From: an uncultured Verrucomicrobiae bacterium
GTDB lineage: Bacteria > Verrucomicrobiota > Verrucomicrobiia > Palsa-1439
NCBI GenBank assembly: GCA_963812605.1
Contig: CAWEWF010000006.1
Span: 352,001-416,000 of the forward strand
Direction: 5' to 3'
DNA: 64,000 bases
Shown here piece by piece: positions 44,213-63,591 of this stretch. The position numbers were made by a program, and so were the translations under genes. Under the pieces are notes generated by a model that saw only the letters and a list, made by a program, of their open reading frames with translations, did not search any database and was not told where the DNA came from. Every line of letters begins with the position of its first letter. Position 1 is the first letter of the stretch.

Positions 44213-44560
44213 AGGGGGCAGTCCTTAGTATTGACACGAAGGATTTGGTGCGCGGGGTTTATCGGGTCGGGTTTCTTCTTTCTGCGTTTGACTGCGAGGT
44301 TGGAGGTCACGTCTAATCATCGGGGCAACTCTGGCGAGAGGAAATGGTGTCACATCTCCTCGTATAATGCCCCAGCCTGTTCGCCCTTCCCACCCGCCAG
44401 AAAAACGAAACCTTTGGCGCATTTCCTCCGTCTGTGATAATGAAAACATGGTGTTTTCAGCACAACCAACTCTTGTGCTGCGGTGTTGAAGGTAACAGGT
44501 GATTACATGCGCTTTTTACCGGGAAACCAGGGATTTCGCTTTCGCGGAGGGACGACGGAA

Positions 44561-46387
44561 ATGCTGAATCTACTTGTTCGCAAGCCAAGTAGCCGACGCT
44601 GCTGGCAGGCTATCGCAATCGTGGTGCTTGTCGGATTGTCGGGGAGCCTAGTGCGAGCCCGGGACGACCAGCCACTCACCGACCGACAGAAGATCGTTCA
44701 CGTTCTCAATCGGCTCGGGTACGGCCCGCGCCCCGGCAACGTCGAGCGGGTCGAGAAGATGGGCCTGCCGGCGTATCTTCGCCAGCAATTGCACCCCGAG
44801 ACGATCGACGATTCCGCGCTCCGGTCTGAACTCGCCAAATTCGACATCCTCACCATGAGCGAGACGGAATTGTTCCAGGATTTCCGTGATGAGCAGCAGG
44901 CGAACAAGCAACGAAAGATCGAACAGGCCGATGCGGAGAAGAAGAGCGCAGCCGCCGCGGCCGGCTCTTCAACCAATTCCATGAGCGCCCAGAATGAATC
45001 ATCGCCCGCCCTGAGACGTCCCCGGTACCGCGAAGACGGTCCCCGCCGCTCGGTGATCGCCGTGGCGGAACTGCAGGACGCCAAGATCATCAGCGCCGTC
45101 GATTCGCCCCGCCAACTTTACGAGGTGCTCGTCGATTTCTGGAGCAATCATTTCAACATCGATGTTCGCAAAGGCCCGTGCCGCGTCCTCAAGGTCGTCG
45201 ACGAGCGCGAAGTCATCCGCCCGCACGTCTTCGGCAAATTCCGTGATTTACTGGGGGCTTCCGCCAAGAGTCCCGCGATGCTTCACTATCTCGATAATTT
45301 CCAGAACTCCGCCGAGCGCGAATTGTCCCCCAACGAACTGCGCCGCCACCAGCAATTCCAACAGAGCGTTCCCGGGACAACGGGAGTCATCGAGAGCAAA
45401 CCGCAGAAGGTTGGCGGCCTCAATGAAAATTACGCCCGGGAGATCATGGAACTGCATACGTTGGGCGTGGACGGTGGCTACACGCAAAAAGACGTGCAGG
45501 AAGTGGCCCGTTGCTTCACCGGTTGGGGCGTCGACCCACAAACCGGCGAATTCCAGTTCATGCCGCGCCGCCATGACAACGGCTCGAAGATGGTTCTCGG
45601 CCATTTCATCATGGCCAATGGCGGTATTAAGGACGGCGAAAGGGTTCTCGACATCCTGGCGTCGCACCCCTCGACCGCGAAGTTCATTTCCACGGAACTC
45701 TGCCGCCGCCTCGTGACCGACGATCCGCCGCCCGTGTTGGTGGACCGTGTGGCCAGCGTCTTCCGGGAAACAGACGGCGACCTGCGGCTGGTCGTCCAGG
45801 CGATCATCAACAGCCCCGAGTTCTTCTCGCCGCAAGCCTATCGCGCAAAAATCAAATCGCCCTTTGAATTCGCCGTGTCCGCCGTTCGCGCGACCGGCCG
45901 GTCCATTGTGGACGATGACTTCCCGCCGATGAATGCGCGCCTCGCCATGGAAGCGGGCGCCACGTTCGGGCGCGGCATGGACCGGATCGCGAACGCCAGG
46001 CGCAAATCGTTGGATATTGCTCTCATTGAGATGGGCCAGCCCTTGTTCGCGTACCAGGCGCCCACGGGTTATACCGAGGACTCGCGCAAGTGGGTCAACG
46101 CGGGCGCGCTGATTGCCCGCATGAACTTTGCCCTCGCGCTGTCGGAACACAAGGTCATCGATGTCTCGACCGCCCCCACGGATTTGATTCGCGGCGTGGA
46201 CAGCGATAAGCCCGGCTTGGTCCTCGATCAATTGAATCAGGTCTTGCTCCACGGCGAGATGGCGCCCACCACGCGCGCCACGCTGGAAAAGCAAATCTCG
46301 AACAAGGATGCTGACGAGGCCAGCACCGTCAACGTTCCCGAACTCACCGCCCTGGTCCTTGGTTCACCGGAATTCCAACGCCACTAA
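44561..46387 (+). CDS. DUF1800-family exported protein
   Basis: HVLNRLGYGPRPG, FWSNHFN, PAMLHYLDN, NENYAREIMELHTLG, SPEFQRH. Confidence 0.95.
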   Translation: MLNLLVRKPSSRRCWQAIAIVVLVGLSGSLVRARDDQPLTDRQKIVHVLNRLGYGPRPGNVERVEKMGLPAYLRQQLHPETIDDSALRSELAKFDILTMSETELFQDFRDEQQANKQRKIEQADAEKKSAAAAAGSSTNSMSAQNESSPALRRPRYREDGPRRSVIAVAELQDAKIISAVDSPRQLYEVLVDFWSNHFNIDVRKGPCRVLKVVDEREVIRPHVFGKFRDLLGASAKSPAMLHYLDNFQNSAERELSPNELRRHQQFQQSVPGTTGVIESKPQKVGGLNENYAREIMELHTLGVDGGYTQKDVQEVARCFTGWGVDPQTGEFQFMPRRHDNGSKMVLGHFIMANGGIKDGERVLDILASHPSTAKFISTELCRRLVTDDPPPVLVDRVASVFRETDGDLRLVVQAIINSPEFFSPQAYRAKIKSPFEFAVSAVRATGRSIVDDDFPPMNARLAMEAGATFGRGMDRIANARRKSLDIALIEMGQPLFAYQAPTGYTEDSRKWVNAGALIARMNFALALSEHKVIDVSTAPTDLIRGVDSDKPGLVLDQLNQVLLHGEMAPTTRATLEKQISNKDADEASTVNVPELTALVLGSPEFQRH

Positions 46388-46403
46388 TGCAAGGAGATCG
46401 ATC

Positions 46404-47702
46404 ATGACACTCACACGTCGAGCATTTCTCAAACGCGGCGGTCTGGCCCTGGTATCCGTCGGCACGATGCCGCTGTGGGGGCCGTCTTTCCTCCAGCAAC
46501 TGGTCTTCGCCGCTGACCCGGCCCAGGCAGGAGGCAAAAAGATTCTCATCTGCATTTTCCAGCGCGGGGCGGTGGACGGACTCTCCATGGTCGTGCCCTT
46601 CGGCGATCCCTACTATTACCAGGCCCGTTCCGAGATCGCGATCGCCCAGCCCACCCAGAAAGCCGGCGTGGAAGGCGTGCTCCCCCTCGACGACCTCTTC
46701 GGTTTCCACCCGAACATGGCCGCGCTGATGCCCATCTACAAGAGCGGTCATCTGGCCCTGATTCACGCCTGCGGCTCGCCCAGTTCCAACCGCTCGCATT
46801 TCGACGCGCAGGATTTCATGGAATGTGGCGTGGCGGATGACAAATCGATCCGCACCGGTTGGCTCAATCGCGCCCTGCTCGAATGTCCCGAGGATCGCGC
46901 CAAGCTCACTCCTTTTCGCGCAGTCTCGATGACCTCCATTTTGCCACGCACCTTGCAAGGCGATCAGGAGGCGCTGGCCATTCCCGATCTGAAGTCATTT
47001 GGGGTCGGCGGCGCCGGCTTCGCCCCGAGCAGCACCACCGCCTCCGCCGCGAGCGGATTCGAGGGCATGTACGAAAGCGCCGTGGGCGACCTGCTGCACG
47101 GCAACGGCAAGGACGCTTTCGATGCCATCGGGATGTTGAAGGCCGCTGACCCGACAAAGTATTCGCCGCGCAACGGCGCTTCCTATCCGAATGGCGCATT
47201 CGGTCGTTCGCTCATGCAAATCGCCCAGATGATCAAGGCCAACATCGGCGTCGAAGTCGCCTTTGCCGAAATCGGCGGCTGGGATACTCACGTCAATCAG
47301 GGCGCCGCACAGGGCCAGTTGGCCAATCGGTTTACGGAATTCTCCGGCGGCCTCGCCGCCTTGTACCAGGACCTCGGCGATCGCATGGACGACGTGGTCA
47401 TCCTGACAATGAGCGAGTTTGGCCGTACCGTCCGCCAAAACGGCAACCGCGGCACGGACCATGGTCATGCCACTTGTTTCATGGTGCTCGGCGGCCCGAT
47501 CCGTGGCGGCAAGGTTTACGGCAAATGGCCCGGTCTCGCCCGTGAACAACTTTTTGAACAGCGCGACCTGATGTTGACCACCGACTACCGCGACGTCTTT
47601 GCCGAATTGTCCCAGAAGCATCTCGGCGCTCGCGATGTTGACAAGATTTTTCCGAACCACACGCTCCATCCCAGGAACTACCCGGGATTGGTGGCGGTAT
47701 AA
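46404..47702 (+). CDS. DUF1501-family protein with Tat signal
   Basis: TRRAFLK; RGAVDGL, RSHFDAQ, GGWDTH, SEFGRT, GTDHG. Confidence 0.95.
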   Translation: MTLTRRAFLKRGGLALVSVGTMPLWGPSFLQQLVFAADPAQAGGKKILICIFQRGAVDGLSMVVPFGDPYYYQARSEIAIAQPTQKAGVEGVLPLDDLFGFHPNMAALMPIYKSGHLALIHACGSPSSNRSHFDAQDFMECGVADDKSIRTGWLNRALLECPEDRAKLTPFRAVSMTSILPRTLQGDQEALAIPDLKSFGVGGAGFAPSSTTASAASGFEGMYESAVGDLLHGNGKDAFDAIGMLKAADPTKYSPRNGASYPNGAFGRSLMQIAQMIKANIGVEVAFAEIGGWDTHVNQGAAQGQLANRFTEFSGGLAALYQDLGDRMDDVVILTMSEFGRTVRQNGNRGTDHGHATCFMVLGGPIRGGKVYGKWPGLAREQLFEQRDLMLTTDYRDVFAELSQKHLGARDVDKIFPNHTLHPRNYPGLVAV

Positions 47703-48661: not shown

Positions 48662-50381
48662 GTGAACGAGTTACTCGATAAAATGGTGGCGGCCCGGCAA
48701 CTGTCGGTTGCCGATGCCGCGACCCTGGCCCGGCAGCCGGTAGAGGGTCCCCACGCCATTCGCTCCGAAGAGGACGTGCTTCGCTGGCTGGCCGGCGAGT
48801 ATGGACTGGCCTACACCGATTTGGAGAACGTCGAATTGGATCGTGAACTCTTGTCGCTGTTTCCGCCGCGTATCCTGCTGAAGGAAGAACTCCTGCCGTT
48901 GAAGCGCGTCAATGGCTCCGTCGAGGTGGCCACGAGCCGCCTGTTTGCCACACAAGGGCTTGATACTCTCAAGGCGATGACGGGCTTGAAGCTCAAGCCC
49001 ATCCTCGCCCCGAGCGAAGCGATCCAGCGGGAGATGAAGAAACGGCTGGGGGTGGGCGCGGACACCATCGGCACGCTGGAAGAGGAAGCGCCCCTCCAGG
49101 TCGTCAGCGAGGACGGCTCCGAGGAAGATACCGATTTGGACGCCGCGGCGGAAGACGCGTCCATCATCCGCTTCGTCAACCAGGTGCTGCGCGACGCGAT
49201 CGAATTGCGGGCTTCGGACATTCATCTCGAACCCTTCGAACACGAGTTCCGCATTCGCTACCGGATTGATGGCGTGCTCCAGGAGGTCCCCGTCCCCTCC
49301 CAACTCAAACGGTTTCAACCGGCCATTGTTTCCCGCATCAAGATTCTCAGCCATCTCAATATCGCCGAGAAGCGGCTGCCGCAGGATGGCCGCATCAAGA
49401 TCCGCATCGATGACGGCGAAGTGGACATTCGCGTTTCCGTCATCCCGATGCTCCACGGCGAAGCGGTGGTAATGCGTTTGCTGCGGCAGAACGCCACGCT
49501 GCGCGGCCTGGGTGAACTGGGCATGGACGCGCCCGAACTGGATCGCTTCCGCCGCGTCCTTCAATTGCCGCATGGAATTATTTTGGTGACGGGCCCGACC
49601 GGCAGCGGCAAAACTTCCACGCTCTACACGGCGCTCAATGAGATCAACGATGCCGTCCGCAAGATTGTCACGATTGAAGATCCGATCGAGTATCAACTCA
49701 AGGGCGTCAACCAGATCCAGGTGTCCGAAAAAGCCGGGCTTAACTTTTGCCCGCGGCCTGCGCTCCATCCTGCGCCATGATCCCGACGTCATTCTCATCG
49801 GCGAAATTCGCGACCAGGAGACGGCGCAAATCGCCGTGCAGGCCTCCCTCACGGGTCATTTGGTCTTTTCCACGCTCCACACCAACGACGCCCCCGGCGC
49901 CTTGACCCGTCTCGTCGATATGGGCGTCGAACCGTATCTCGTGGCGTCGTCCCTCGAAGCAGTCCTGGCCCAGCGCCTCGTGCGCGTGCTCTGCACGCAT
50001 TGCAAGCAAGTGGATGAATCCCCCACCGCCCAGTCGTTCAAGGTCCAGGTGGGCATCCCCGCCGCTACCACGATTTACCGTTCGGTCGGTTGCCGGGAAT
50101 GCCGCCAAACCGGCTTCTTCGGCCGCCACGCCATTTTCGAGTGGATGGATTCCGACGACGAAATCCGCCAATTGATTCTGAAAAGCTCTTCCAGCGACGT
50201 CATCCGCGAGGCGGCCCGTCGCGCTGGTTTGCGCACGCTGGCGGAGGACGGCTGGCGGCTCGTGCGCCTGGGCATCACCACCGTCGAGGAAGTGTTAAGC
50301 GTGACGACCGCCAAGGAAGTGGCGCGCGCCAATAAAACCGAGCCGGTCACCGCTCCAACAGCGACACCCGGGAAAATGTAA
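48662..50381 (+). CDS. gspE: T2SS ATPase (frameshift near 49745)
   Basis: [52 protein letters not shown], CxxC..CxxC. Confidence 0.95.
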
Positions 50382-50383
50382 CG

Positions 50384-51624
50384 ATGCCCCTCTTTCTTTA
50401 CAAAGCCCTGCAGACCGATGGGAGCGTCACCGAAGGCAACATCGACGCCGAGGGCCGGCAGGAGGCCTTCCGTCAAATTGAAGGCCGCGGGCTGACGCCC
50501 ATCAGCTTATTGGCTGGTTCCAACGGCCAGGCCGCCAAGGGCGGTGAGGTGAAAAAAGACATGGTGGCAACGCCCTGGGCTTCCAAGAAAATCTCCTCTC
50601 GCACGCTCGAGAATTTTACCCGGCTGTTGTCCAGCCTCCTGGCGGCGGGCGTGCCTCTGAGCCGGGCCCTGGTCATTCTTCACCGTGAAGCCTCGACACC
50701 CCTGGCTCGGAAGAAGTGGAAGGAAATCCATGATTCCGTCGTGGACGGCGTGACCCTGGCCGATACGATGGCGCGCTCGCCGGATACTTTTCCGCGCGTT
50801 TACGTGGCGATGGTCGAGGCCGGCGAGACCGGCGGCTTCCTGGATTTGGTGCTCGCGCAAATCGCCGATTTCCAGGCGCGGGAAAAAGAGTTGCGTTCGA
50901 AAGTGATGGCGGCCCTGCTCTATCCGGCGGTCTTGCTGGCGGTGGCCCTGTCGTCCTCGTTTTTCTGCTGGTGTTCTTCATACCGCGATTGCAGCCTCTC
51001 TTTATCAGCTTTGGTGGAACCCTGCCGCTCTTAACGCGGATGATCATCGCCACGAGCACCGTCGTCCGGTCCTACGGTTTCTTCGTCGCACTCGGGCTGG
51101 CGCTGGGCGGTTATTTCATTCGCAATTGGATGCGATCGCAACAAGGAAGGCGTGTTTGGGAGCGTGCCCTGCTGCGCGCGCCGGTGGTGGGAAAACTCAT
51201 CGCGCAATTTGCCATGGCCCGGTTCTGCCGGATGCTCGGGACTTTGCTGGCCGCCGGTGTGCCGCTGATCAATGGATTGACCGTGGCCCGCAAATCCATT
51301 GGGAACCAGATCCTCGTGGACGCGGTCGCCAATTCCATCGAACGGGTGAAGGAAGGCGCCGCGCTGGGGCCGAGCCTGGCCAGTTGCCGCGAACTTTTCA
51401 CCGGCTCCGTCCTGGAAATGATTTCCGTGGCGGAAGAAAGCGGCCGCTTGGATCAGGAACTCATTCGCCTCGCGGACGTCACGGAACGCGACCTGGATCG
51501 CGAGTTGAAGATGGCCGTGTCCCTCGCCGAGCCGCTGATGTTGTTTTTTATCGCCGGATTCATCGGCACGATTTTCATCGGGATGGCCCTCCCGATCTTC
51601 TCGCTTCAGGATTACATCAAATGA
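50384..51624 (+). CDS. gspF: T2SS inner membrane platform (frameshift near 50950)
   Basis: LLAAGVPL, AGETGG.L, ALLYP, AEESG.L, EPLM. Confidence 0.93.
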
Positions 51625-51644
51625 ATACCCAAGGAGCTGCCATC

Positions 51645-52106
51645 ATGAAACGGAACCCATCCATCAAAAATCAATTGCGCCGGAGCAGCCGGGAGGCGTT
51701 CACGTTGATTGAACTGCTCCTGGTGCTCGTGATTCTCGGCGTGCTCGCCGCCATCGTGGTGCCGAAGTTCGCGGGTCGAACCGAACAGGCAAGAAATACT
51801 GCCGCAAAAACGCAGATCTCCAATTTCGAGACCGCGCTCGACGCCTTTGAGGTGGACAACGGTTATTATCCCAAGGGCAAGAACGGCCTCAATGATCTCG
51901 TTGTCCAACCCAAGGACGCGCCCAACTGGCATGGTCCGTACCTCAAGCAGGAAAGCATTCCCAACGACCCGTGGGGACAGCCTTACATTTACGATTGTCC
52001 GGGCAAACACAATGCAAGCACGTACGACATCATGTCCATGGGACCCGATGGACGCGTGGGCGGCGATGATGACATCACAAGCTGGGACCAGGGCAAGAAG
52101 CATTAG
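51645..52106 (+). CDS. gspG: Major pseudopilin
   Basis: AFTLIELLLVLVILGVLAAIVVP, DNGYYP, W.GPYL, DPWG.PY, GPDG. Confidence 0.95.
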   Translation: MKRNPSIKNQLRRSSREAFTLIELLLVLVILGVLAAIVVPKFAGRTEQARNTAAKTQISNFETALDAFEVDNGYYPKGKNGLNDLVVQPKDAPNWHGPYLKQESIPNDPWGQPYIYDCPGKHNASTYDIMSMGPDGRVGGDDDITSWDQGKKH

Positions 52107-52631
52107 GCCGCGGCAGCGCAGCGCCTTTACGCTGATCGAGCTGATCGTGGTGATGGCCCTGCTGTCGATCGTGATCGCCATCGGCGCGCCCCGGCTGGCC
52201 AGGTTTTTTCACGGGCAGACGGTCGCGGAAGAAGGCCAGCGACTGTTGGCCCTGACCCGGTACGGCCAGAGCCGGGCCGCCTCGGAAGGCTTGCCGATGA
52301 TTCTGTGGATGAATCCGGCAAATGGGACGTACGGGCTGCGGATGCAGGATGGATTCAGTGCCGGGGGAACGACGGCCCCGGCGGAACCGGGAAAGATAAG
52401 AGCTACCAACTGGGGGATGGGCTGCGGTTCCAGTTCGAGCAGGGAGTGGCCATGCCGAAGCAAGGAGCCAGCATCCTGTTTGCGCCCGATGGCTCCATCG
52501 AAGAAAGCAGTGTGCACCGGGTGGTGATCGCCCAGGACGATGGCGATTGGTCGGCCATCGCGGAATCACCGAATCAGATGAATTATGTCACGGTTGAGAA
52601 AACAAATGCGCGGGCAACGATATCGTGGTAG
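52066..52631 (+). CDS. gspH: Minor pseudopilin H (frameshift near 52400)
   Basis: AFTLIELIVVM; ILFAPDG. Confidence 0.8.
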
Positions 52632-53013
52632 CCGGAATTTACGGAGCGGCTTCACGTTGGTCGAAATGCTGGCCGCCATGCTTTTCATGGCCATCGTCAT
52701 CCCGGTGGCTTTGCAAGGTCTGCGGATCGCCAGCCGCGCCGGGGCCGTGGCCGGTCGCAAAAGCGTCGCCGTGCAGTTGGCCGAAAGCAAATTGAATGAA
52801 CTGATCGTCACCGGTCAATGGCACAACTCCGGTCAGGGCGGCGCTTACGGCGCGCAGTGGCCGGGCTATCAGTGGACGGTAAAGAACGAACCGTGGGGCG
52901 GCGACACCACTGTCAATAGCCTGCGGCTCGTGACCGTCGAGGTCACCTACTTCGTGCAGGGACAGAATTACAACGTGCACTTGAGCACGGTATTGCCGGA
53001 CACAGCCCTATGA
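52606..53013 (+). CDS. gspI: Minor pseudopilin I
   Basis: GFTLVEMLAA; AVQLAESKLNEL; LRLVTVEV. Confidence 0.82.
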   Translation: MRGQRYRGSRNLRSGFTLVEMLAAMLFMAIVIPVALQGLRIASRAGAVAGRKSVAVQLAESKLNELIVTGQWHNSGQGGAYGAQWPGYQWTVKNEPWGGDTTVNSLRLVTVEVTYFVQGQNYNVHLSTVLPDTAL

Positions 53014-53720
53014 CGCGCCGAGGCAACCAACGCAAGCTTTCAGACGACAGCGCCTTCACCCTGTTGGAGGTGTTGATCGCGACGCTGATCGCCGCCGTGG
53101 TCCTCGCGGCAATGAACGCCGCATTCTATGCGGCGCTGCATTTGCGATCGGTCACCAACGACCTGGTCGAAAACAGCATTCCGATGAACCATGCCGCCTC
53201 GATCCTCAAAGCCGACCTGCGGGGCACGTTGATCACCGGTGGAACCATGGCCGTTTCCATCGAAAGCCCCGGCGCGGAAAGCAGCGACAACCAACCCACG
53301 GACCTGGACATTTACACAACGACGGGGATACTCCGCGACGACCAGCCCTGGGGAGACGTGCAAAAGGTCTCCTATTTGCTGAAAGACTCGGCCAACGCCT
53401 CCCGCCTGGGTGGCAAGGACCTGGTTCGCGCGGTCACCCGCAATCTGTTGGCTTCCACGCAACCGGATCTGGCCGAACAGCCGCTCTTGAGTGGTGTCGG
53501 CTCCGTACAGTTTTCATTTTACGACGGCGCGAATTGGCAAACCACCTGGGATTCAACGTCGGCGGTTACCCCCACGCCGCTGGCGATCAAGGTGCACGTC
53601 GAGTTTGCCAACAAAAATACCACCGGACAAGGACGGCTACCGCTGGAGATCCTGGTCCCGGTGGACGGACAGATGTCCAGTAACAGTGTCGCAGCGTCGG
53701 GAAGCGTGACCGGCGGATGA
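53010..53720 (+). CDS. gspJ: Minor pseudopilin J
   Basis: AFTLLEVLIA; FYDG.NWQTTW; PLAIKV. Confidence 0.85.
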   Translation: MTRRGNQRKLSDDSAFTLLEVLIATLIAAVVLAAMNAAFYAALHLRSVTNDLVENSIPMNHAASILKADLRGTLITGGTMAVSIESPGAESSDNQPTDLDIYTTTGILRDDQPWGDVQKVSYLLKDSANASRLGGKDLVRAVTRNLLASTQPDLAEQPLLSGVGSVQFSFYDGANWQTTWDSTSAVTPTPLAIKVHVEFANKNTTGQGRLPLEILVPVDGQMSSNSVAASGSVTGG

Positions 53721-55153
53721 AAACCCGGAATTCCATAGGACAGCAGGTTGGACGGAATGCAGCATCGCCAAATGCGGCGGTGCTGGTGATTGTGCTTTGG
53801 ATTGCCTTCGGCCTGGTGAGTATCGCCCTCTATTTTGGTCAATCAATGATGTTCAATCTCCAGGCGGCCGACAATTATGAAGCCAGCGTCGAGGCCGACC
53901 AGGCCATTGAGGGCGCGGCGCGCTACGTCAGCGCCGTTCTTACCAATCTTCAACAGCAGGTCCAGTCGCAGGGCACGAACATGCCCGGTGTCCTGGTCCT
54001 GCCGGGGGTCATTCAAGCGTACACGCCGCAATCGGGACAGACGCCGTTTACCCAAACGTATCAAAGCCAGGAAGTGCCGGTGGGGAACGCGCACTTCTGG
54101 CTGATCGGAAGAGATACGGGCGGGACTTCGAACGTCAATAGCGGTGTCCCGGTTTTCGCTCTCGTCGATGAAGCGTCGAAGTTGAACCTCAACACGGCGA
54201 CGTTGGACATGCTGGAAGCCCTGCCGTTCATGACGCCCGATTTGGCCGCTTCGATCCTGAACTGGCGGACCAACGCCACCACCACCATTGCGGGAGGCGC
54301 CAAATTGGAGTACGGGATGCTGAATCCGCCGTACACCTGCAAGAACGCCCCGTTCGAGACGGTTGACGAATTGAAACTCGTGATCGGCGCGACAACAGAT
54401 ATCTTGTACGGTGCGGACATCAACCTGAATGGCATCCTCGATGCGAATGAGAGCGTCCAGAATACTTTCCAGACCGGCGCCAACCTCGATAATGGATTGA
54501 ACGCGGGGATCCTCGAGTACGTCACCGTTTACAGCCGCGAACCCAATACGCAGATCGATGGCACTCCCCGTGTCAATATCAGCGCCCGTGGACAAGCTGG
54601 CTTGCGAACGGCGCTGCAGAATGCGTTGGGCTCCGACCGGGCCAGCCAGATCCTGCAGCAGGCCGGAAGAAACACCACGTATACCAGCGTGCTCCAATTC
54701 TATCTCACTAGCGGGATGACCGCCGACGAGTTCGCCCAGGTCGCCGACATGCTGACAGTGAGTGCTGATCCCTACGTTCAAGGACTGGTGAATGTGAATA
54801 CGGCTTCCGCCACGGTTCTGGCCTGCCTCCCCGGTATCGGGGTGAACAACGCGCCGGCGCTCATCACTTATCGACAGGCTCATCCCGATCAACTGGCCAC
54901 GGTGGCCTGGGTGGCCCAGGTTTTGGGGAACGACGCGGCCATCCAGGCGGGCCCGTATATCACCGCCAAAAGTTACCAGTTCAGCGCCGACGTGGCCGCC
55001 GTCGGTCATCACGGCCGCGGGTATCGGCGGACCGTGTTCGTGTTTGACACCAGTAGCGGAACGCCACAGATCACTTACCGCCGAGATTTGAATCAATTGA
55101 CCCGGGCGCTTGGCGCCGCCCGACAAAACTGGCAACTGACCGGGAACATGTGA
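53717..55153 (+). CDS. gspK: Minor pseudopilin K
   Basis: VLVIVLW; DEASKLNLNTA; PFETVDEL.LV.G; VNVNTA..VL.CLPG. Confidence 0.9.
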   Translation: MKTRNSIGQQVGRNAASPNAAVLVIVLWIAFGLVSIALYFGQSMMFNLQAADNYEASVEADQAIEGAARYVSAVLTNLQQQVQSQGTNMPGVLVLPGVIQAYTPQSGQTPFTQTYQSQEVPVGNAHFWLIGRDTGGTSNVNSGVPVFALVDEASKLNLNTATLDMLEALPFMTPDLAASILNWRTNATTTIAGGAKLEYGMLNPPYTCKNAPFETVDELKLVIGATTDILYGADINLNGILDANESVQNTFQTGANLDNGLNAGILEYVTVYSREPNTQIDGTPRVNISARGQAGLRTALQNALGSDRASQILQQAGRNTTYTSVLQFYLTSGMTADEFAQVADMLTVSADPYVQGLVNVNTASATVLACLPGIGVNNAPALITYRQAHPDQLATVAWVAQVLGNDAAIQAGPYITAKSYQFSADVAAVGHHGRGYRRTVFVFDTSSGTPQITYRRDLNQLTRALGAARQNWQLTGNM

Positions 55154-56604
55154 TGACACTGGATTTTCTTGCATCGCTGAAACCGCGCGGGTCTTCCCTG
55201 ATGGGATTGACCATCGAGGGGCGGCGACTCGAAGGGATCGTCCTTTCACGCGCCAAGGATTCTTTGGAGGCGGGCCAGCCCTTTGAAGTTCTGCTGTCAC
55301 TGGACCCCTTGACCAACGATCCGGAACTGGTTGGACAGGAAATTCGCAATCGACTCGATGAAGCCGGAGTGCGCGAAAGCCGGTGCGCGGTCGGCATTCC
55401 TTTGAATTGGGCGCTGACCCTTCCGGTAAAATTGCCGGAAATTCCCGAGGAAGATGTCCCCAGTTTCCTCAGTATCCAGGCCGAAAGAGGTTTTCCCTAC
55501 AGCCCGGAAGATTTGCGCGTGACGACATCGCGCTGCCATTCCGCCAAAGATGGGCAGTACGCCACTCTCGTGGCGATCCCCCGTGACTATTTGGCGCGCC
55601 TCGAGCAGGTACTCGTTGCCGCCCGGCTCAAACCGGTCAGTTTCTCGCTGCTTGTTACGGCTTTGCAATTGCCGTCCGCTGCGGAATCGGAAGGTGTCCT
55701 GTCCCTGGTGGTCGGTGAAAACAGGGTTGACCTCCAGATTACGTGCGGGGGTGGCGTCGTCGCGTTGCGCTCGCTGGAGGGAGCCATCGAGATCGAGAAC
55801 GGCCAGCGCCAGATTGATACGGATTTGCTGACCCGGGAGATCCGGTTGACGCTGGGGCAACTGCCGGCTGGGTTCCGCGAAGCCGTCACCAGGATTCGTG
55901 TCTTCGGACGCACGGAATGGACGCAACCGTTGGCCGACGAAATTGCGGCGATTGCCGGGCGCATGGGGTTGCCGGTGGAACTGCAGCCGATCGCCCAGGT
56001 GGACGGAGTTGGGGCGTTGGCTTCCATTCCAGAAAGTGCCCCGCCGGCACTGGTGATGGCGCTTCGTTCTTTGGAAGGCAATCCAACCGGTTTCGAGTTC
56101 CTGCCCCCGAAGGTCAGCCCATGGATGGAACTCGCGGCGCGGTTCTCTTCACGTCGCGTCTTTTGGTCGAGCGCGACGGCGGGCGCGGCCATCCTCCTGA
56201 TTTTGCTGGCCTTTCTGGTGCAGTATACCCGGCTTTCGATCCTCGAATCGCGCTGGCACGCCATCGAACCACGCGTCACGGAAATCGATGGCATGCAGCA
56301 AAACATCCGCAAGTTTCGCCCGTGGTTCGACAACTCAGCGCGCACGTTGACAATTCTCAAGAACCTCACCCAGGCCTTTCCGGAAGACGGCGTGGTTTCC
56401 GCGAAGACGCTCGAAATCAAGGATCTTTCGGAAGTCTCCTGCTCCGGCGTGGCGGATGACAACCAGGCTCTGTTGAAGTTGTTGGACCGACTGCGGGCCG
56501 CGCCTCACGTCGAGGACGTCAAGGTCCAGCAGGTCCGCGGCAAATCACCGCTGCAATTCACCTTCGACTTTCATTGGTCGGATGGAGCCACCCATGAAAA
56601 TTGA
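55150..56604 (+). CDS. gspL: GspL / PilM-PilN-like assembly protein
   Basis: Cytoplasmic actin-like region, one TM, C-terminal ferredoxin-like region; operon position. Confidence 0.7.
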   Translation: MMTLDFLASLKPRGSSLMGLTIEGRRLEGIVLSRAKDSLEAGQPFEVLLSLDPLTNDPELVGQEIRNRLDEAGVRESRCAVGIPLNWALTLPVKLPEIPEEDVPSFLSIQAERGFPYSPEDLRVTTSRCHSAKDGQYATLVAIPRDYLARLEQVLVAARLKPVSFSLLVTALQLPSAAESEGVLSLVVGENRVDLQITCGGGVVALRSLEGAIEIENGQRQIDTDLLTREIRLTLGQLPAGFREAVTRIRVFGRTEWTQPLADEIAAIAGRMGLPVELQPIAQVDGVGALASIPESAPPALVMALRSLEGNPTGFEFLPPKVSPWMELAARFSSRRVFWSSATAGAAILLILLAFLVQYTRLSILESRWHAIEPRVTEIDGMQQNIRKFRPWFDNSARTLTILKNLTQAFPEDGVVSAKTLEIKDLSEVSCSGVADDNQALLKLLDRLRAAPHVEDVKVQQVRGKSPLQFTFDFHWSDGATHEN

Positions 56605-57133
56605 GAATCGCCAAAAAGTGCTGACGATCGTGGCGATCAGCGCGGTGGCTGTGTTGGCCCTCGATCGGCTGGTTCTCACGCCGTTGGGCCGGGTGTGGCA
56701 AAAACGCTCCGAGCGGATTGCGGAATTGTCGAAGGACCTCAGCCAGGGCAAACTTCTGCTGGAGCGCGAGACGACGATCCGGAACCGCTGGTCAAACATG
56801 GCGAGCAACACCCTGCCCGTGAACCTGTCGATGGCAGAAAGCAAGGTCTTGAAGTCCGTGGATAATTGGACGCAAGACAGCGGGATCAGTTTCACTTCCA
56901 TCAAGCCCCAGTGGAAACAGAATGAGAACGACTACGTGACGCTGGAGTGCCGGGCCGATGCATTTGGAGACATGTCATCCCTGACTCGCTTTCTCTACGA
57001 TCTGGAGCGGGAACAGGCCTTGCGAGTGGAGGACGTTGAAATCTCCTCGCGGGATAACGATGGCCAACAACTTTCGCTCGGAGTGCGTTTTACCGGATTG
57101 GTCCTTACCGGAGAACCGGCGGAACAGCCATGA
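56594..57133 (+). CDS. gspM: GspM / PilO-like protein
   Basis: N-terminal TM, coiled coil, G.M..L.RFLY.LE. Confidence 0.7.
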   Translation: MKIENRQKVLTIVAISAVAVLALDRLVLTPLGRVWQKRSERIAELSKDLSQGKLLLERETTIRNRWSNMASNTLPVNLSMAESKVLKSVDNWTQDSGISFTSIKPQWKQNENDYVTLECRADAFGDMSSLTRFLYDLEREQALRVEDVEISSRDNDGQQLSLGVRFTGLVLTGEPAEQP

Positions 57134-57759
57134 AACATTCCGGGAAACGACGACAACGAATCGACAGGCTGGCGTGGCTTGTGCCTGCCTTCGCCGCGGC
57201 GTTGTCCTGCCTTCCCGCCGCGGTCGGCGCGGTCGATACGAGCAACACCTCGTCCGCCGTGTCCCTCCAGAATTTCAAAATCATTACGCAACGGAACATT
57301 TTCGACCCCAACCGCCAGGCAGACTCCGGGGAACGGGGCCGGAGGATCGATCCCAATCGGCTGGCGCGCGCGGAAGGCTTTTCCCTGGTGGGCACGTTGC
57401 TTGATAAGCGGGGTGAATTCGCTTTCTTCAGCGGTAGTGACTCGAAATACAAGAAGGTCCTGAAAGTAGCCGGCACCATCGCCGACTACAAGGTCACGGA
57501 AGTCGCGCCGGACCATGTCGAGCTGGAGAACAACGGCACGCAGGTCAAGATGACCGTCGGAATGCAGATGAAAAAACTTGATGCGGGAGAATGGCAGTTG
57601 GTGGATGGCACTGTGGCCCTGGCCAAAGTATCGGAGACTTCCGCTTCCGAAACAAAAGATACGGAAACTTCCAACGACGGACCCAGCACGGGCAACAGCA
57701 GCGCCGATGCGGTCCTTAAAAAGTTGATGCAACAGCGCGAAAAGGAGTTGAATAAATGA
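57130..57759 (+). CDS. GspC/PilP-like protein
   Basis: RNIFDPNR; LVGT...AFF; G.I..YKV.EV..D.V.L. Confidence 0.6.
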   Translation: MKHSGKRRQRIDRLAWLVPAFAAALSCLPAAVGAVDTSNTSSAVSLQNFKIITQRNIFDPNRQADSGERGRRIDPNRLARAEGFSLVGTLLDKRGEFAFFSGSDSKYKKVLKVAGTIADYKVTEVAPDHVELENNGTQVKMTVGMQMKKLDAGEWQLVDGTVALAKVSETSASETKDTETSNDGPSTGNSSADAVLKKLMQQREKELNK

Positions 57760-59384
57760 ACACCGTGAAAATCTACGTACTACTGCTTGGATTAAGCTGG
57801 GGCACCGTGACGCTGTCGTTCGGCCAAACAAATGATGCGCCGCGAGCGTCCGATCCCACGAACGGCCCCGCGGTCGAGCAGCCCAATGCTTCGCCCGCAG
57901 TCGCGGATCAACCGTCCACCAACGAGACGGCGGTTGCTGAGACTCCCAGTGAGGCGGCAACCGCCAGTGCGGCTGTTACAACGAATGAACCCGCAGGCGA
58001 TGATGAATTGCGCCTGAATTTCCGCGGCGCCCCGTTGGAAATGGTATTGGATTACCTCAGCAAAGCCGCCGGTTTCACCATCGTTTTGGAAACGGACGTG
58101 AAGGGCAAGGTGGATGTTTGGAACAACCATCCGCTCACCAAGGATGAGGCGGTCGCGGTGTTGGATTCCGCGTTGAATCGCAATGGCTACGCGGCGATTC
58201 GCAACGGGCGCACCCTGACGATCATGAGCCGGGACGAGGCGAAGAAACGCAACATCCCCGTCACGCCCGGCAGCAATCCCGAGGCGATCCCGAAGACCGA
58301 TGAAATGGTCACGCAAATCATCCCGGTCCGTTATGCCAATGTCTCTCAGTTGCTCAAAGACCTGGAACCTCTCAAACCCGCTTATGCCACCTTGACCGCG
58401 AACGACAGCGCGAACGCGCTGGTCTTGACCGATACACGGGCCAACGTCCGGCGCATGGTGGAAATCGTCAACGCGCTGGATACTTCCGTTTCCAGTGTTT
58501 CGACCGTGCGCGTGTTCCCGTTGAAATATGCGGATGCCAAGGATTTGGCGGCTGCGGTCAAGGAATTATTCCAATCACCCACCACCGGCCAGCAGCAAGG
58601 CAACAATGCGCGCCAGTTTTTCCGTGGCTTCGGCGGCGGTGGTGGTGGCCCCGGCGGCCAGGGCGGCGGCACAGACAATGCGGCGGCGCAACGAGTCGTT
58701 CCCCACGTCTCGGCGGTGGCGGACGACCGTAGCAACTCATTGGTCGTCAGCGCGCCGGACGAATACATCCCAACGATCGAGCAATTGGTCCGGGAAATCG
58801 ATGTCAGCGTCACGGACGTGACCGAATTGCGAGTATTCCATCTGGCCAATTGCGATCCGGTGGAGACAGCGGCGCTTTTTGCGCAGTTGTTCCCGGATGA
58901 CAGCCGGACAACTGACCAGAACCAGGCCGCCGTCCGTTTTCGTGGAGGATTCGGCGGCTTCTTCAACCAGGGAAACGTCCCGACCGTTCAGACGCCGACC
59001 AGCGACCGGATGAAGAAGAAAGGCGAGGTCATCGCGGTACCGGACCAGCGCACGTCGTCGGTCATTATTAGCGCCGCGGGCGATTTAATGCCCCAGATCG
59101 CCGCCATGATCGAGCAGCTCGACGGCAATTCATCCAAGAAACAAAGCGTCTATGTCATCCCTCTGGAAAACGCGGAAGTTACCGATGTCCTGCCCGTGTT
59201 GCAGGATATGTTCAACAAGAATAACAACACGTCCAAGAGCAGTGCTTCGAGCCAGAATGACCAGAATAACGCGCTCAATGCCCGAGCCACCCGGAACAAC
59301 CAGCAATCGACAACCGCCGCCGGCACAGGGATGCGCACCGGTGGTGTCGGCGGGGGCGGAGCCGCCGGCGGAGGCGGATTCTAA
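57756..59384 (+). CDS. Secretin N-domain-only protein (N0 plus N repeats, no barrel)
   Basis: Signal peptide; LNFRGAPL..VL; repeats IPVRYANV, FPLKYADA, FHLANCDP, IPLENAEV; Gly-rich tail then stop. Confidence 0.88.
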   Translation: MNTVKIYVLLLGLSWGTVTLSFGQTNDAPRASDPTNGPAVEQPNASPAVADQPSTNETAVAETPSEAATASAAVTTNEPAGDDELRLNFRGAPLEMVLDYLSKAAGFTIVLETDVKGKVDVWNNHPLTKDEAVAVLDSALNRNGYAAIRNGRTLTIMSRDEAKKRNIPVTPGSNPEAIPKTDEMVTQIIPVRYANVSQLLKDLEPLKPAYATLTANDSANALVLTDTRANVRRMVEIVNALDTSVSSVSTVRVFPLKYADAKDLAAAVKELFQSPTTGQQQGNNARQFFRGFGGGGGGPGGQGGGTDNAAAQRVVPHVSAVADDRSNSLVVSAPDEYIPTIEQLVREIDVSVTDVTELRVFHLANCDPVETAALFAQLFPDDSRTTDQNQAAVRFRGGFGGFFNQGNVPTVQTPTSDRMKKKGEVIAVPDQRTSSVIISAAGDLMPQIAAMIEQLDGNSSKKQSVYVIPLENAEVTDVLPVLQDMFNKNNNTSKSSASSQNDQNNALNARATRNNQQSTTAAGTGMRTGGVGGGGAAGGGGF

Positions 59385-59428
59385 CCATGATCGAATTCTC
59401 TGACAAACAGAACACCGCAAGGCGAAAT

Positions 59429-60611
59429 ATGATAAACAAGGTTTGGCAGCCAAAAAAAGTTCTCGTCGGGATCGTCAGCTTCTGGATGTGTGCCGTGCTC
59501 CAGGTTCGTGCGCAAGGGCAACAGCAGTTGCAGCCGCGACCAGCCGCGGCGTCTTCCTCGACCGCTGGCAGCCGGCCGTATGTTCCCAATGGAACGATCG
59601 GTGACGCGGTGATCTCCAGCGACCCGGATACCAAGCAGATCACAGTCATCGCCGACGAGGAAACCGCTGGGTATATCAAGCAAGTGATCAGCGGGTTGGA
59701 TCGCCCGAAGCCCCAGGTACTGATCAAAGTTGTTTTCCTGGAAGTGGAATACGACAACGCTTCCGACATTGGCGTTGAGGGCAACATCACCGGCAAGCTC
59801 CGGGTCCATGACCGGTACAGCCTCGAATATTTTCGGCCTTCTTTCATCGGGCGCCTCCCCGGTGCCGCCGGGCGCCGGGCTTTATACTGTCCTGGGAAAT
59901 GATTTTTCGGCCACCCTGCGGTTGATTGCATCGGCGGGGAAAACGGAAATCCTTTCCCGTCCTTCAATCCTTGCCCGAAATAACCAGCAGGCCACAATCA
60001 CGCTTGGCCAACAGGTCCCCTTGATCACCAGCACACGGTTTGATACGCTGGGCAACCAGATCAACTCCGTCACCTACCAGAATGTCGGGATTATCCTGCA
60101 AGTGACCCCGTTCATCACGCCGGAGGGATTTGTGGAAATGATCGTCTCGCCGCAAACTTCAGAACTTGCTGATCGATCGCAGTGGGTTCCCATCTCGAGT
60201 GGACCCAGCGGTTCCATTAGCGCCCCCGTGATTAACACACGGTCGGCGGACACCGTGGTGGTTGTTCCGGACGGGCAAACATGCATTATTGGTGGGTTGA
60301 TGGAAAATCAGCGCGTTAGTTCCGACAGCAAGATCCCGATCCTGGGCGACATTCCCCTCATCGGCAATGCGTTTAAGCGCCAAACAAAAACTTACACCAA
60401 AACCGAACTCATCATCTTCCTGACCCCGCACATCGTTGCGAACCCTGTGCAACTTGTCGGGTTGTCCGCAAGGGAGAAGGCAAACGCGCAATTGGCCCCC
60501 AAGGCATTTACGGAACAGGAACTGGACCGTTTTCTGGACACCGTGCCCGTAAAGGGTAAGACCAATAGTATGAATCGGGCTGGCACCCAGCCCACGAAGA
60601 GCGCGCAATAA
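59429..60611 (+). CDS. gspD: Secretin C-domain protein with its own signal peptide (frameshift near 59810)
   Basis: KKVLVGIVSFWMCAVLQVRA; LDRPKPQVLIKV..LEV; LSRPSI..NNQ.A.I..GQ.VP; VGIIL.VTP; GGL..KIPILGDIP.IG.AF; ELIIFLTPHI. Confidence 0.9.
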
Positions 60612-62183: not shown

Positions 62184-63591
62184 ATGCCACAAAACACCAA
62201 CCACCCATCCTCCAGCGCAGGCCGCATCCTGATCGTCGACGACGATGCCGGCCAGCGCAGCCTCCTGAGTTCGTTTTTGAACGGCCAAGGGTTCGAGACC
62301 GTGCCAGTCTCCTCGGGCGAAAGTGCGCTCGAAGTCCTGGGCGAACAGGAATTCGCCATGATGATTACCGATGTGCGGATGCCCGGCATCTCCGGCCTCG
62401 AGACGCTGCGACGTTTGCGAAAGGTGCGCCCCGCCCTGCCCGTCCTGCTCGTCACTGCCTATGCGGACATCCGCGACGCGGTCGTGGCGATGCGTGATGG
62501 CGCGGTGAATTACCTGGAAAAGCCGATTGATTTGGATGAATTGCTGGCCTCCGTTCGGACCGCCGTCGGCCTTGATGGCGCGGTGGCTCCGACGGTGACG
62601 GAAGAACGGCCGTTGCCCAAAGGCGTCGTCGCCAGCAGCCGGCTCATGCAAGCCGTCTTTCGCGACACGTCGCTGGTCGCTTCCTCCGAAACCCGGATCC
62701 TGCTCGACGGGCGAGAGTGGCGTCGGCAAGGAAGTGATCGCCGAAGTCATCCACGCGTGGAGTCCTCGAGCCGCCGGTCCCTTCGTCAAAGTGAATTGCG
62801 CGGCCATTCCGGAAACCCTCCTGGAAAGTGAACTCTTTGGCCACGAGAAGGGCGCCTTCACGGGCGCGTACACCCAGCGCATCGGGCGTTTCGAGGAAGC
62901 GAATCAAGGGACTATTTTCCTCGATGAAATTGTCGAGATGTCTTCGCCGCTGCAGGCAAAATTGCTGCGCGTCCTCCAGGATGGGCGATTTCAACGGGTG
63001 GGCTCCAACAAGGAATTGCATACGGACGCGCGCATTCTCGCGGCCACCAATCGCGACCTGGAAGAGGTCGTCGCCAATGGGGAATTCCGCGAGGATCTGT
63101 ACTACCGGCTCAATGTGATGGAGATCCACGTTCCGCCGCTTCGTGAACGTCCGGAGGACATTTTGCCGCTGGCGACTTTGTTTCTCGGGCAGTTTACCGA
63201 TCACAAGGCGAAGTTTTCGCCGGGTGTCGCGCGCTTTCTGGAGGCGTACAAATGGCCCGGCAATGTACGGGAATTGCGCAACGCGATTGAACGGGCGGTA
63301 TTGATGTCGCACGGCAACCTGATTCTGCCCGAACACTTCCCCGCCCGTGTCCAGGAAGATTCGACGAAGTCCACGGAAAGACTGACCCTTCAGGCCAGCC
63401 GCTTGGAAGACCTCGAACGGGAAGCGATTCTCCTTGCCCTGCGCGAGCACAGTTTTAACCGCACCGAGACCGCCAAGGCGCTGGGCCTGAGCCGTCGAGC
63501 CCTGCTCTACAAGCTCCATCGGCTGCGTGAGCTCGGATTTCCAGTCGATCCGCCGGCAGCCGGTGCCGCGAAAGATGCACCAGCTACATGA
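62184..63591 (+). CDS. NtrC/ZraR-family sigma54 activator (frameshift near 62707)
   Basis: Receiver; GESGVGKE (across frameshift); GAFTGA; FLDEI; REDLYYRL; WPGNVREL; Fis HTH. Confidence 0.95.

Follow-up and report, generated by a model that had tools for sequence, protein, structure and literature searches.

A secretin of a type II secretion system encoded by two genes in Verrucomicrobiota, with the break inside an N-domain

In a 64,000-nucleotide stretch of DNA from an uncultured soil bacterium of the Verrucomicrobiae (contig CAWEWF010000006.1, positions 352,001 to 416,000 of the forward strand; called the window hereafter, its positions counted from its first letter), we found that the secretin of a type II secretion system (T2SS) is encoded by two consecutive genes on the plus strand, at 57756-60611, and that the cut between them lies inside an N-domain. 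The second gene opens with conserved signal-peptide features of its own, the arrangement recurs in every distinct locus in which we had both genes, and the pair is colinear with single-chain homologues. The reading that we consider probable is that an old and since fixed fission of a GspD-type gene took place in an N-domain loop, and that the separately exported halves dock to each other and form a pore of 1:1 composition. An earlier note on this DNA, made from its letters alone, had already read the locus as a split secretin with two exported products, and below we report which parts of that reading held.

Gene 1, encoding what we call the vestibule chain, occupies 57756..59384 of the plus strand and specifies 542 amino acids, as defined by its open reading frame (ORF), by Pfam and NCBIfam matches and by an AlphaFold2 model. 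It starts with a signal peptide of about residues 1-23 (57756..57824), read from the sequence and from alignment A1, whose putative cleavage site is SFG-Q here and AHA-Q in relatives. The GspD N0 domain (58014..58247, residues 87-164, model elements E88-H164) is matched by Pfam PF21305 at residues 87-151 with 51.7 bits and is followed by three complete N-domains (58306..59123; residues 184-246, 250-348 and 356-456), located by Pfam and by the model, where each has the order beta-alpha-beta-beta-alpha; Secretin_N (PF03958) matches gene 1 in three stretches with 131.1 bits. Behind them lies only the first half, beta1-alpha1, of a fourth N-domain (59142..59216, residues 463-487). When the last 86 residues of ORF1 were scanned alone, residues 466-498 matched Secretin_N profile positions 2-26 of 69 and no others, with 19.3 bits. 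The chain ends in a low-complexity tail of 55 residues (59217..59381, residues 488-542), composed over 70 aligned rows of G 20%, N 16%, T 16%, S 15% and Q 11%. The AlphaFold2 model has four folded domains with a predicted local distance difference test (pLDDT) value of about 90, afterwards just a helix at 475-487 with pLDDT 60-73, and then the disordered tail with pLDDT below 50. The second and third N-domains have G-rich loops (58600-58710 and 58900-59020) whose R-F-x-G-G(-F-G-G) motifs are invariant in alignment A1, and the stretch L507..R510 of the tail, kept in at least 90% of the 70 rows, recurs in the loop of the one-chain homologue P0001, so that the low-complexity loops are not featureless; at this tail stretch (59270-59290) AlphaFold2 puts a short helix of low confidence. 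In most relatives of the same genus gene 1 has 449-478 residues as against the 542 of the window and one N-domain fewer (A1, columns ~345-454), which means that members of the clade differ in how many vestibule rings they have but not in where the cut lies.

The TAA stop of gene 1 (59382-59384) and a 44-nucleotide spacer with an AAGG motif (together 59382..59428, plus strand) lead to the start of gene 2, which encodes the barrel chain and runs on the plus strand from 59429 to 60611, with 394 amino acids when two bases missing from the assembly are counted. Its start was set by comparison with orthologues at the ATG at 59429 (MINKVWQPKK...), the frame itself opening at 59387. Residues 1-28 (59429..59512) form a signal peptide with the site VRA-Q, assigned by a heuristic, by alignment and by the model of an orthologue. 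The heuristic asks for K or R among residues 1-14 together with a hydrophobic core and a site of small-x-small type; applied to the gene 2 N-termini of 88 loci, each read from the first start preceding the hydrophobic stretch, it was passed by 86 of 88, and at the site itself Ala stands at -1 in 65 of 69 rows and Gln at +1 in 68 of 69. The orthologue as modelled by AlphaFold2 has residues 4-22 as a helix and then a disordered stretch, matching the low-complexity linker of gene 2 (59513..59596; orthologue residues 26-52, pLDDT <50). Next comes the second half, beta2-beta3-alpha2, of the fourth N-domain (59597..59701), identified by Pfam and by the orthologue model: the start of mature ORF2 matches Secretin_N profile positions 30-69 only, with 20.6 bits, and the modelled half-domain consists of two strands (59-63 and 68-72) and a helix (75-88) that pass directly into the barrel, whose strands run from residue 94 on. 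The barrel itself, the Secretin domain (59702..60437), is matched by Pfam PF00263 on ORF3 residues 67-236 with 164.9 bits, and a Foldseek search with the gene 2 model returned T2SS secretins as best matches (E 1.4e-17), with probability 1.00 to solved secretins. The C-terminus of gene 2 (60440-60608, alignment A4) carries a conserved F.E.EL..FLD.LP.K stretch, and the orthologue model has two helices there, at 338-353 and 361-369; this region might be an S-domain-like site for a pilotin.

The profile coordinates of the two half-domains, Secretin_N 2-26 at the end of gene 1 and 30-69 at the start of gene 2, are complementary and do not overlap, so the earlier note was right in placing the cut inside an N-domain. 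The NCBIfam model type_II_gspD (TIGR02517, 600 positions) is likewise covered by both, at positions 1-268 by gene 1 (218.8 bits) and at 278-599 by the gene 2 orthologue of locus L013 (221.5 bits); the simple sum is 440 bits, while neither gene alone reaches the whole-protein cut-off of 351.35 bits. By AlphaFold2, gene 1 contributes alpha1 and gene 2 beta-beta-alpha, which add up to a beta-alpha-beta-beta-alpha N-domain. Of the features that define the secretin superfamily, the C-terminal barrel is present by PF00263 and Foldseek, and the periplasmic N0 with repeated N-domains is present by Pfam and the model; in none of the 84 distinct paired loci are all domains on one polypeptide. A further trait of the superfamily is assembly, as a 12-17-mer, into an outer-membrane pore.

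Two breaks of different kind interrupt the reading frame of this region. As assembled, it holds three plus-strand ORFs, namely ORF1 (57756-59384, frame 0, 542 aa), ORF2 (59387-59902, frame 2, 171 aa) and ORF3 (59730-60611, frame 0, 293 aa). The break between ORF2 and ORF3, inside gene 2, is an assembly error in which two single bases are missing at 59801..59805 (plus strand). At two places, behind 59801 and behind 59805, a contig from run X1 has a single additional base (single contig, depth 3.8), and adding both yields a 394-residue frame at 59429-60611 with 323 of 394 columns identical to the L013 orthologue; similarly, tblastn with an intact orthologue switches frame at 59802-59803 with no residue lost. 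The earlier note, which described a second gene with the barrel, did not mention that as assembled this gene is frameshifted near 59802. The break between ORF1 and ORF2, by contrast, is real and no assembly indel. That it might be an artefact or a recent pseudogene is suggested by the other frame breaks of the window: besides gene 2 with its assembly error, gspE (48662-50381), gspF (50384-51624) and a sigma-54 response regulator gene (62184-63591) each appear as two overlapping frames holding successive parts of one Pfam family, probably through further single-base errors, and these overlapping pairs within single families mark the assembly as prone to indels. However, the contigs of runs X1, X2 and X3 cross the junction without gaps and without indels at 59380-59430: that of X1 spans 59231-59654 with 0 differences, and those of X2 and X3, which look like one data set filed twice, span 59331-59670 with 18 substitutions and 0 gaps. 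(Within the run contigs, 59869-60021 is without cover in all four runs.) Moreover, the stop, spacer and signal peptide recur across many assemblies, at 84 distinct loci, as well as in a genome consisting of a single contig, and relatives use all three stop codons and spacers of variable length. An artefact is already contradicted by these data, and we give it next to no probability.

The comparison across loci that carries this argument was made on 92 loci in hand, 88 of which have both genes and represent 84 distinct loci, four having been fetched twice. In not one of the 88 were gene 1 and gene 2 found in one open frame, and in all 84 distinct paired loci they are neighbours, with gene 1 closed by a stop, a spacer behind it and a signal peptide on gene 2. 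The stop of gene 1 is TAA in 39 of these loci, TGA in 27 and TAG in 18, the distance from stop to predicted start varies from 4 to 809 nucleotides with a median of 38, and all three relative reading frames of gene 2 against gene 1 occur among relatives. This bears on the idea that both genes are translated into one chain, through programmed read-through of the stop or frameshifting past it. The closeness of the genes, 44 nucleotides here, would suit such a mechanism, but four frame-0 stops stand between 59382 and 59433, every stop codon, every relative frame and spacers of up to 809 nucleotides occur among relatives, and a read-through product would have a hydrophobic signal peptide inside its loop. 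The sole 'fused' protein of this kind on record (P0122, 52% identical), examined as a candidate fusion, proved to be an out-of-frame read-through of the spacer that still contains the gene 2 signal peptide. We therefore regard read-through as extremely improbable.

Among the four unpaired loci, three stop at a contig end and one, L045, is a real orphan. Both genes passed an intactness check in 70 of the 88 loci; most failures reach the end of the locus or contig, and a few (L008/L090, L061) have frameshifts of their own. Loci with either defect were left out of the tree and the alignments, as were the duplicates L002, L023 and L083, the locus of the window itself (L001), and L068, for which no start was found.

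Searching more widely, we found an orthologue-level match (E 7e-60 or better) among 41 related genomes in 15 of 17 of the same genus and in four of other genera, always in open frames of 375-627 amino acids; completeness is 73% and 59% for the two genomes of the genus in which none was found. Matches in frames longer than 730 amino acids also turned up in this search and were set aside as paralogues of 23-32% identity. A scan of one genome per species gave 80 further loci, nearly all labelled Verrucomicrobiota, several of them Pedosphaera or Limisphaerales, whereas in an even sample of the phylum only 4 of 301 genomes, counting that of the window, had an orthologue (E<=1e-45), which confines the arrangement to a few families rather than extending it to the whole phylum. 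The three genomes newly found in that sample repeat the pattern, gene 1 ending in its stop and a further gene with a signal peptide following it, and one of them is a single contig of 4.15 Mb. In a protein collection, 2648 proteins of 298-949 amino acids match gene 1 at E<=1e-40, and the best 120 of these 2648 all have N0 and Secretin_N and none has Secretin; their sources name the family GspD or 'secretin N-terminal domain-containing protein'. With these results the claims of the earlier note that the split is no assembly indel, and that gene 2 has a signal peptide of its own, were both borne out, and the two-gene arrangement is real and conserved.

A further alternative is that the system is decaying and that both genes are nonfunctional. 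In its favour, the source genome (G000) has two other secretins, ordinary one-piece proteins on contigs C5 and C14; but the family is large, its sequences are conserved across families of the phylum, and the rest of the operon is present, all of which makes decay very improbable. The one-piece secretins are a protein of 547 amino acids that adjoins pilin-like genes (L093:1924-3567) and one of 866 amino acids behind a GspM-like gene (L094:1654-4254). Together with the split one they imply three filament or secretion systems in this genome, only one of which has a split pore.

The origin of the arrangement can be read from true one-chain homologues, which we found by searching among longer proteins with gene 1 and gene 2. 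These homologues (P0001, P0129, P0130; P0004, P0005, P0124-P0128) have the same domain order and the same G/S/N-rich long loop between alpha1 and beta2 of the barrel-proximal N-domain, are 34-45% identical to the split form and are its nearest neighbours on the tree, but are single polypeptides of 800-1180 amino acids without stop, spacer or internal signal peptide; P0130 is labelled Sedimentisphaerales by one source. Residues 463-541 of gene 1 correspond in the alignment to P0001 607-685, the tail motifs LNxRAT and AGTGM among them, and gene 2 residues 27-354 align to 678-1001, so that the two genes are colinear with the single chain. The tail of gene 1 thereby represents the first part of the ancestral loop and the linker of gene 2 its second part. 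As judged from these alignments, what has been added relative to one chain is a stop, a spacer and a signal peptide within a disordered loop. A quick IQ-TREE search on 90 rows, comprising 68 of split form, 14 of fused form and 8 of ordinary GspD, unites all split rows in a single clade with a Shimodaira-Hasegawa approximate likelihood ratio test (SH-aLRT) support of 100, which adjoins the fused P0001, P0129 and P0130 with support 84 and lies inside the group of fused proteins with long loops, a pattern that a single old gene fission would fit. Another candidate fusion, P0121, was rejected, since its N-part is that of GspE and only the barrel part attached to it is gene-2-like; it has 6 member sequences and 2 contigs.

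We propose that the fission fell between alpha1 and beta2 of the barrel-proximal N-domain, in a loop that is long and disordered, and that the downstream half then gained its own start codon and Sec signal peptide, so that the two products would be exported separately. Chain 1 would be a soluble periplasmic protein made up of N0, three N-domains, the beta1-alpha1 half and the tail, and chain 2 would consist of the linker, the beta2-beta3-alpha2 half and the outer-membrane barrel. In the periplasm the half-domains would dock and build one ring-forming N-domain, and the resulting pore, a hetero-oligomer of 1:1 composition, would be the counterpart of one-chain GspD and function with the T2SS genes encoded upstream. 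For the docking we rely on the complementary profiles, on the secondary structure predicted by AlphaFold2 and on the conservation of the half-domains: the frequency of the majority residue is 0.65 in the half-domain of gene 1 and 0.69 in that of gene 2, as against 0.69-0.72 in the corresponding halves of intact domains (69-70 rows), and is lower in the tail (0.44) and the linker (0.41). These observations suggest that the halves come together as one N-domain. Pairwise identities of gene 1 and of gene 2 also correlate (r 0.667, at most 0.165 in 200 shuffles), as is expected in any case for neighbouring genes inherited together. A predicted complex of gene 1 residues 360-542 with gene 2 residues 29-100, computed from separate alignments, scored 0.15, below its mark of 0.32, and is used neither for nor against docking. 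Of the domain complementation put forward in the earlier note, then, the matching and conserved half-domains were found, and the rebuilding of one domain from them is a suggestion that they support.

The principal competitor of docking is that both chains serve secretion without sharing a domain, chain 2 acting as a short secretin and chain 1 as a separate periplasmic ring or adaptor or in a role of its own, with the halves being docking peptides or remnants. In its favour, the half-domain of gene 1 has moderate model confidence only, the orphan gene-1-type copy L045 lies outside any T2SS cluster, and the N-part gene rhcC1 of rhizobia is reported to be separately regulated and to occur without the C-part gene rhcC2 in R. 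etli (PMC3574062, PMC3973906). Against it, both half-domains are conserved like intact domains, their profile coordinates fit without overlap, every one of the 84 distinct paired loci has the genes side by side, and their identities correlate, although those of neighbours would anyway. On balance we hold separate chains to be unlikely, though clearly more plausible than the other alternatives considered above, and continue to favour fission with docking.

Several points nevertheless weigh against that preference. The gene 1 model lacks the beta1 strand, and the moderate pLDDT of its half-domain (60-73) fits a piece that needs a partner but equally simple disorder. The signal peptides were assigned by a simple heuristic and by alignment, so that the export of both chains is a prediction from sequence. 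The tree comes from a quick search with some long branches, and its split rows were gathered by the gene-1 pattern. X1 may be the source sample and hence not independent support; with X2 and X3 perhaps one data set, the weight as to the junction rests on the comparison across loci. The rhizobial rhcC1 reports have to be counted here as well, and the lone gene-1 copy in L045 indicates that such chains may have a life of their own. This orphan (L045:3884-5545, 553 amino acids) has the half-domain and the tail; its neighbours are a dioxygenase-like gene on one side and heme-synthesis genes on the other, and within 4 kb there is neither a gene 2 nor any T2SS gene. The metagenome-assembled genome (MAG) to which it is assigned is also that of the paired locus L032, and that bin may therefore mix organisms.

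Split secretins as such are already known, from a type III secretion system (T3SS) of rhizobia and from a mitochondrial T2SS relic, and the fission described here adds a new form to them, in a bacterial T2SS, cut inside an N-domain and with another signal peptide on the second product. Canonical GspD, PulD and XcpQ (solved structures such as 5ZDH, 6HCG, 5WLN and 5WQ7) share N0, N-domains and barrel with the split form, whose best NCBIfam model is type_II_gspD, but the split form has two chains, four N-domains beyond N0 and long low-complexity domain loops. In the rhizobial Rhc T3SS, the secretin encoded by two ORFs (RhcC1/NolW and RhcC2) is described in two papers as a distinguishing functional feature, and its significance is called unknown there (PMC3574062, PMC3973906). 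Those genes belong to a type III cluster, whereas the split secretin here stands in a T2SS-type operon, and on pNGR234a nolW and rhcC2 lie about 12 kb apart on opposite strands. NolW of NGR234 has N0 and ends after a complete Secretin_N (profile positions 1-63), while RhcC2 (L099:13473-14897, pNGR234a) has T2SS-T3SS_pil_N, BON and Secretin and is followed by a CpaD-family gene; since NolW has a whole domain and RhcC2 has domains of its own, the Rhc split is not a clean cut inside a domain, in contrast to the cut at Secretin_N profile positions 26/30 reported here. RhcC2 resembles a CpaC/Tad-type secretin more than it does the C-terminal half of an SctC. It was recognised by family searches of the pNGR234a record, a tblastn search of gene 2 against plasmids having failed to single it out.

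The nearest parallel in principle is the mitochondrial T2SS relic of some protists, for which a paper describes a GspD gene in several parts (GspD, GspDL, GspDN1-3), with two proteins that correspond to a Secretin_N domain's C-terminal half and its N-terminal half, and two-hybrid results that suggested an interaction of GspD with GspDN1 (PMC8134430). The likeness is limited to the principle of half-domain proteins, as the relic is eukaryotic and highly diverged, its barrel protein lacks N0-N3, and its pieces are described there as unassignable to particular N-domains (PMC8134430). Members of the mitochondrial set are eukaryotic nuclear genes in a clade of their own, whereas here we deal with a bacterial locus whose related records are MAGs of Verrucomicrobiota. 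Among type IVb pili, it is reported for BfpB-BfpG and TcpC-TcpQ that an exported small N0-like periplasmic protein joins the secretin 17:17 through strand pairing (PMC12531336), yet this partner is an added whole domain outside the N3 ring and not half of a domain of the secretin itself. For the T2SS of Deinococcus, another paper describes a separate cap subunit (PMC10828601). A survey of type IV filaments names gene fission for TadB/TadC only and leaves Verrucomicrobia unmentioned among the matches listed (12 of 15 passages; PMC6668835). The literature searches, made without supplementary files and subscription journals, turned up no split secretin for a bacterial T2SS or for Verrucomicrobiota.

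What the cell might gain from two chains can be sketched as follows. The docking of vestibule and barrel could be an assembly step in its own right, in which the last ring-building domain exists only where the chains meet; barrels might be placed first and vestibules later, in a regulated or swappable fashion, and the free tails might serve as a disordered plug or filter. We consider this quite unlikely as a whole, somewhat more so than separate chains. The orphan L045 hints at swapping of the vestibule chain, and beyond this single copy we found nothing behind the 'exchangeable or regulated gating' of the earlier note. In solved T2SS secretins the pore has about 15 subunits. If the same number applied here, the cut would leave about 30 free tails per pore, rich in G, S, N, Q and T, and these tails, next to the conserved R-F-x-G-G loops of the other N-domains, may together with them act in the vestibule as a plug or filter that is disordered.

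Work on large pores in the outer membrane, whether of secretion systems, of pili or of filamentous phages, takes secretins as its model, and the formation of the periplasmic rings of secretins and their coupling to the barrel have usually been studied by engineered truncations. The split secretin is a natural, widespread and conserved two-chain version, cut in the barrel-proximal domain, and makes it testable whether an N-domain can assemble in trans, in which order barrel and vestibule are put together, and what the long loop is for. There is also a practical side: with gene 1 annotated just as 'secretin N-terminal domain-containing protein' and each gene scoring under the GspD cut-off, detection of T2SS that counts on a single secretin gene may miscall such systems.

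The split secretin is encoded together with other T2SS core genes, the rest of the operon lying directly upstream on the plus strand (48662..57759) as assigned by Pfam. It comprises gspE, gspF, gspG, pseudopilin genes, gspJ and gspK, an L-like gene containing PilN, and a gspM/pilO-like gene, and the gene of 209 amino acids directly before gene 1 has a weak GspC_delta match (27.4 bits, below the cut-off). Upstream of the operon, the window contains a DUF1800/DUF1501 gene pair at 44483-47702.

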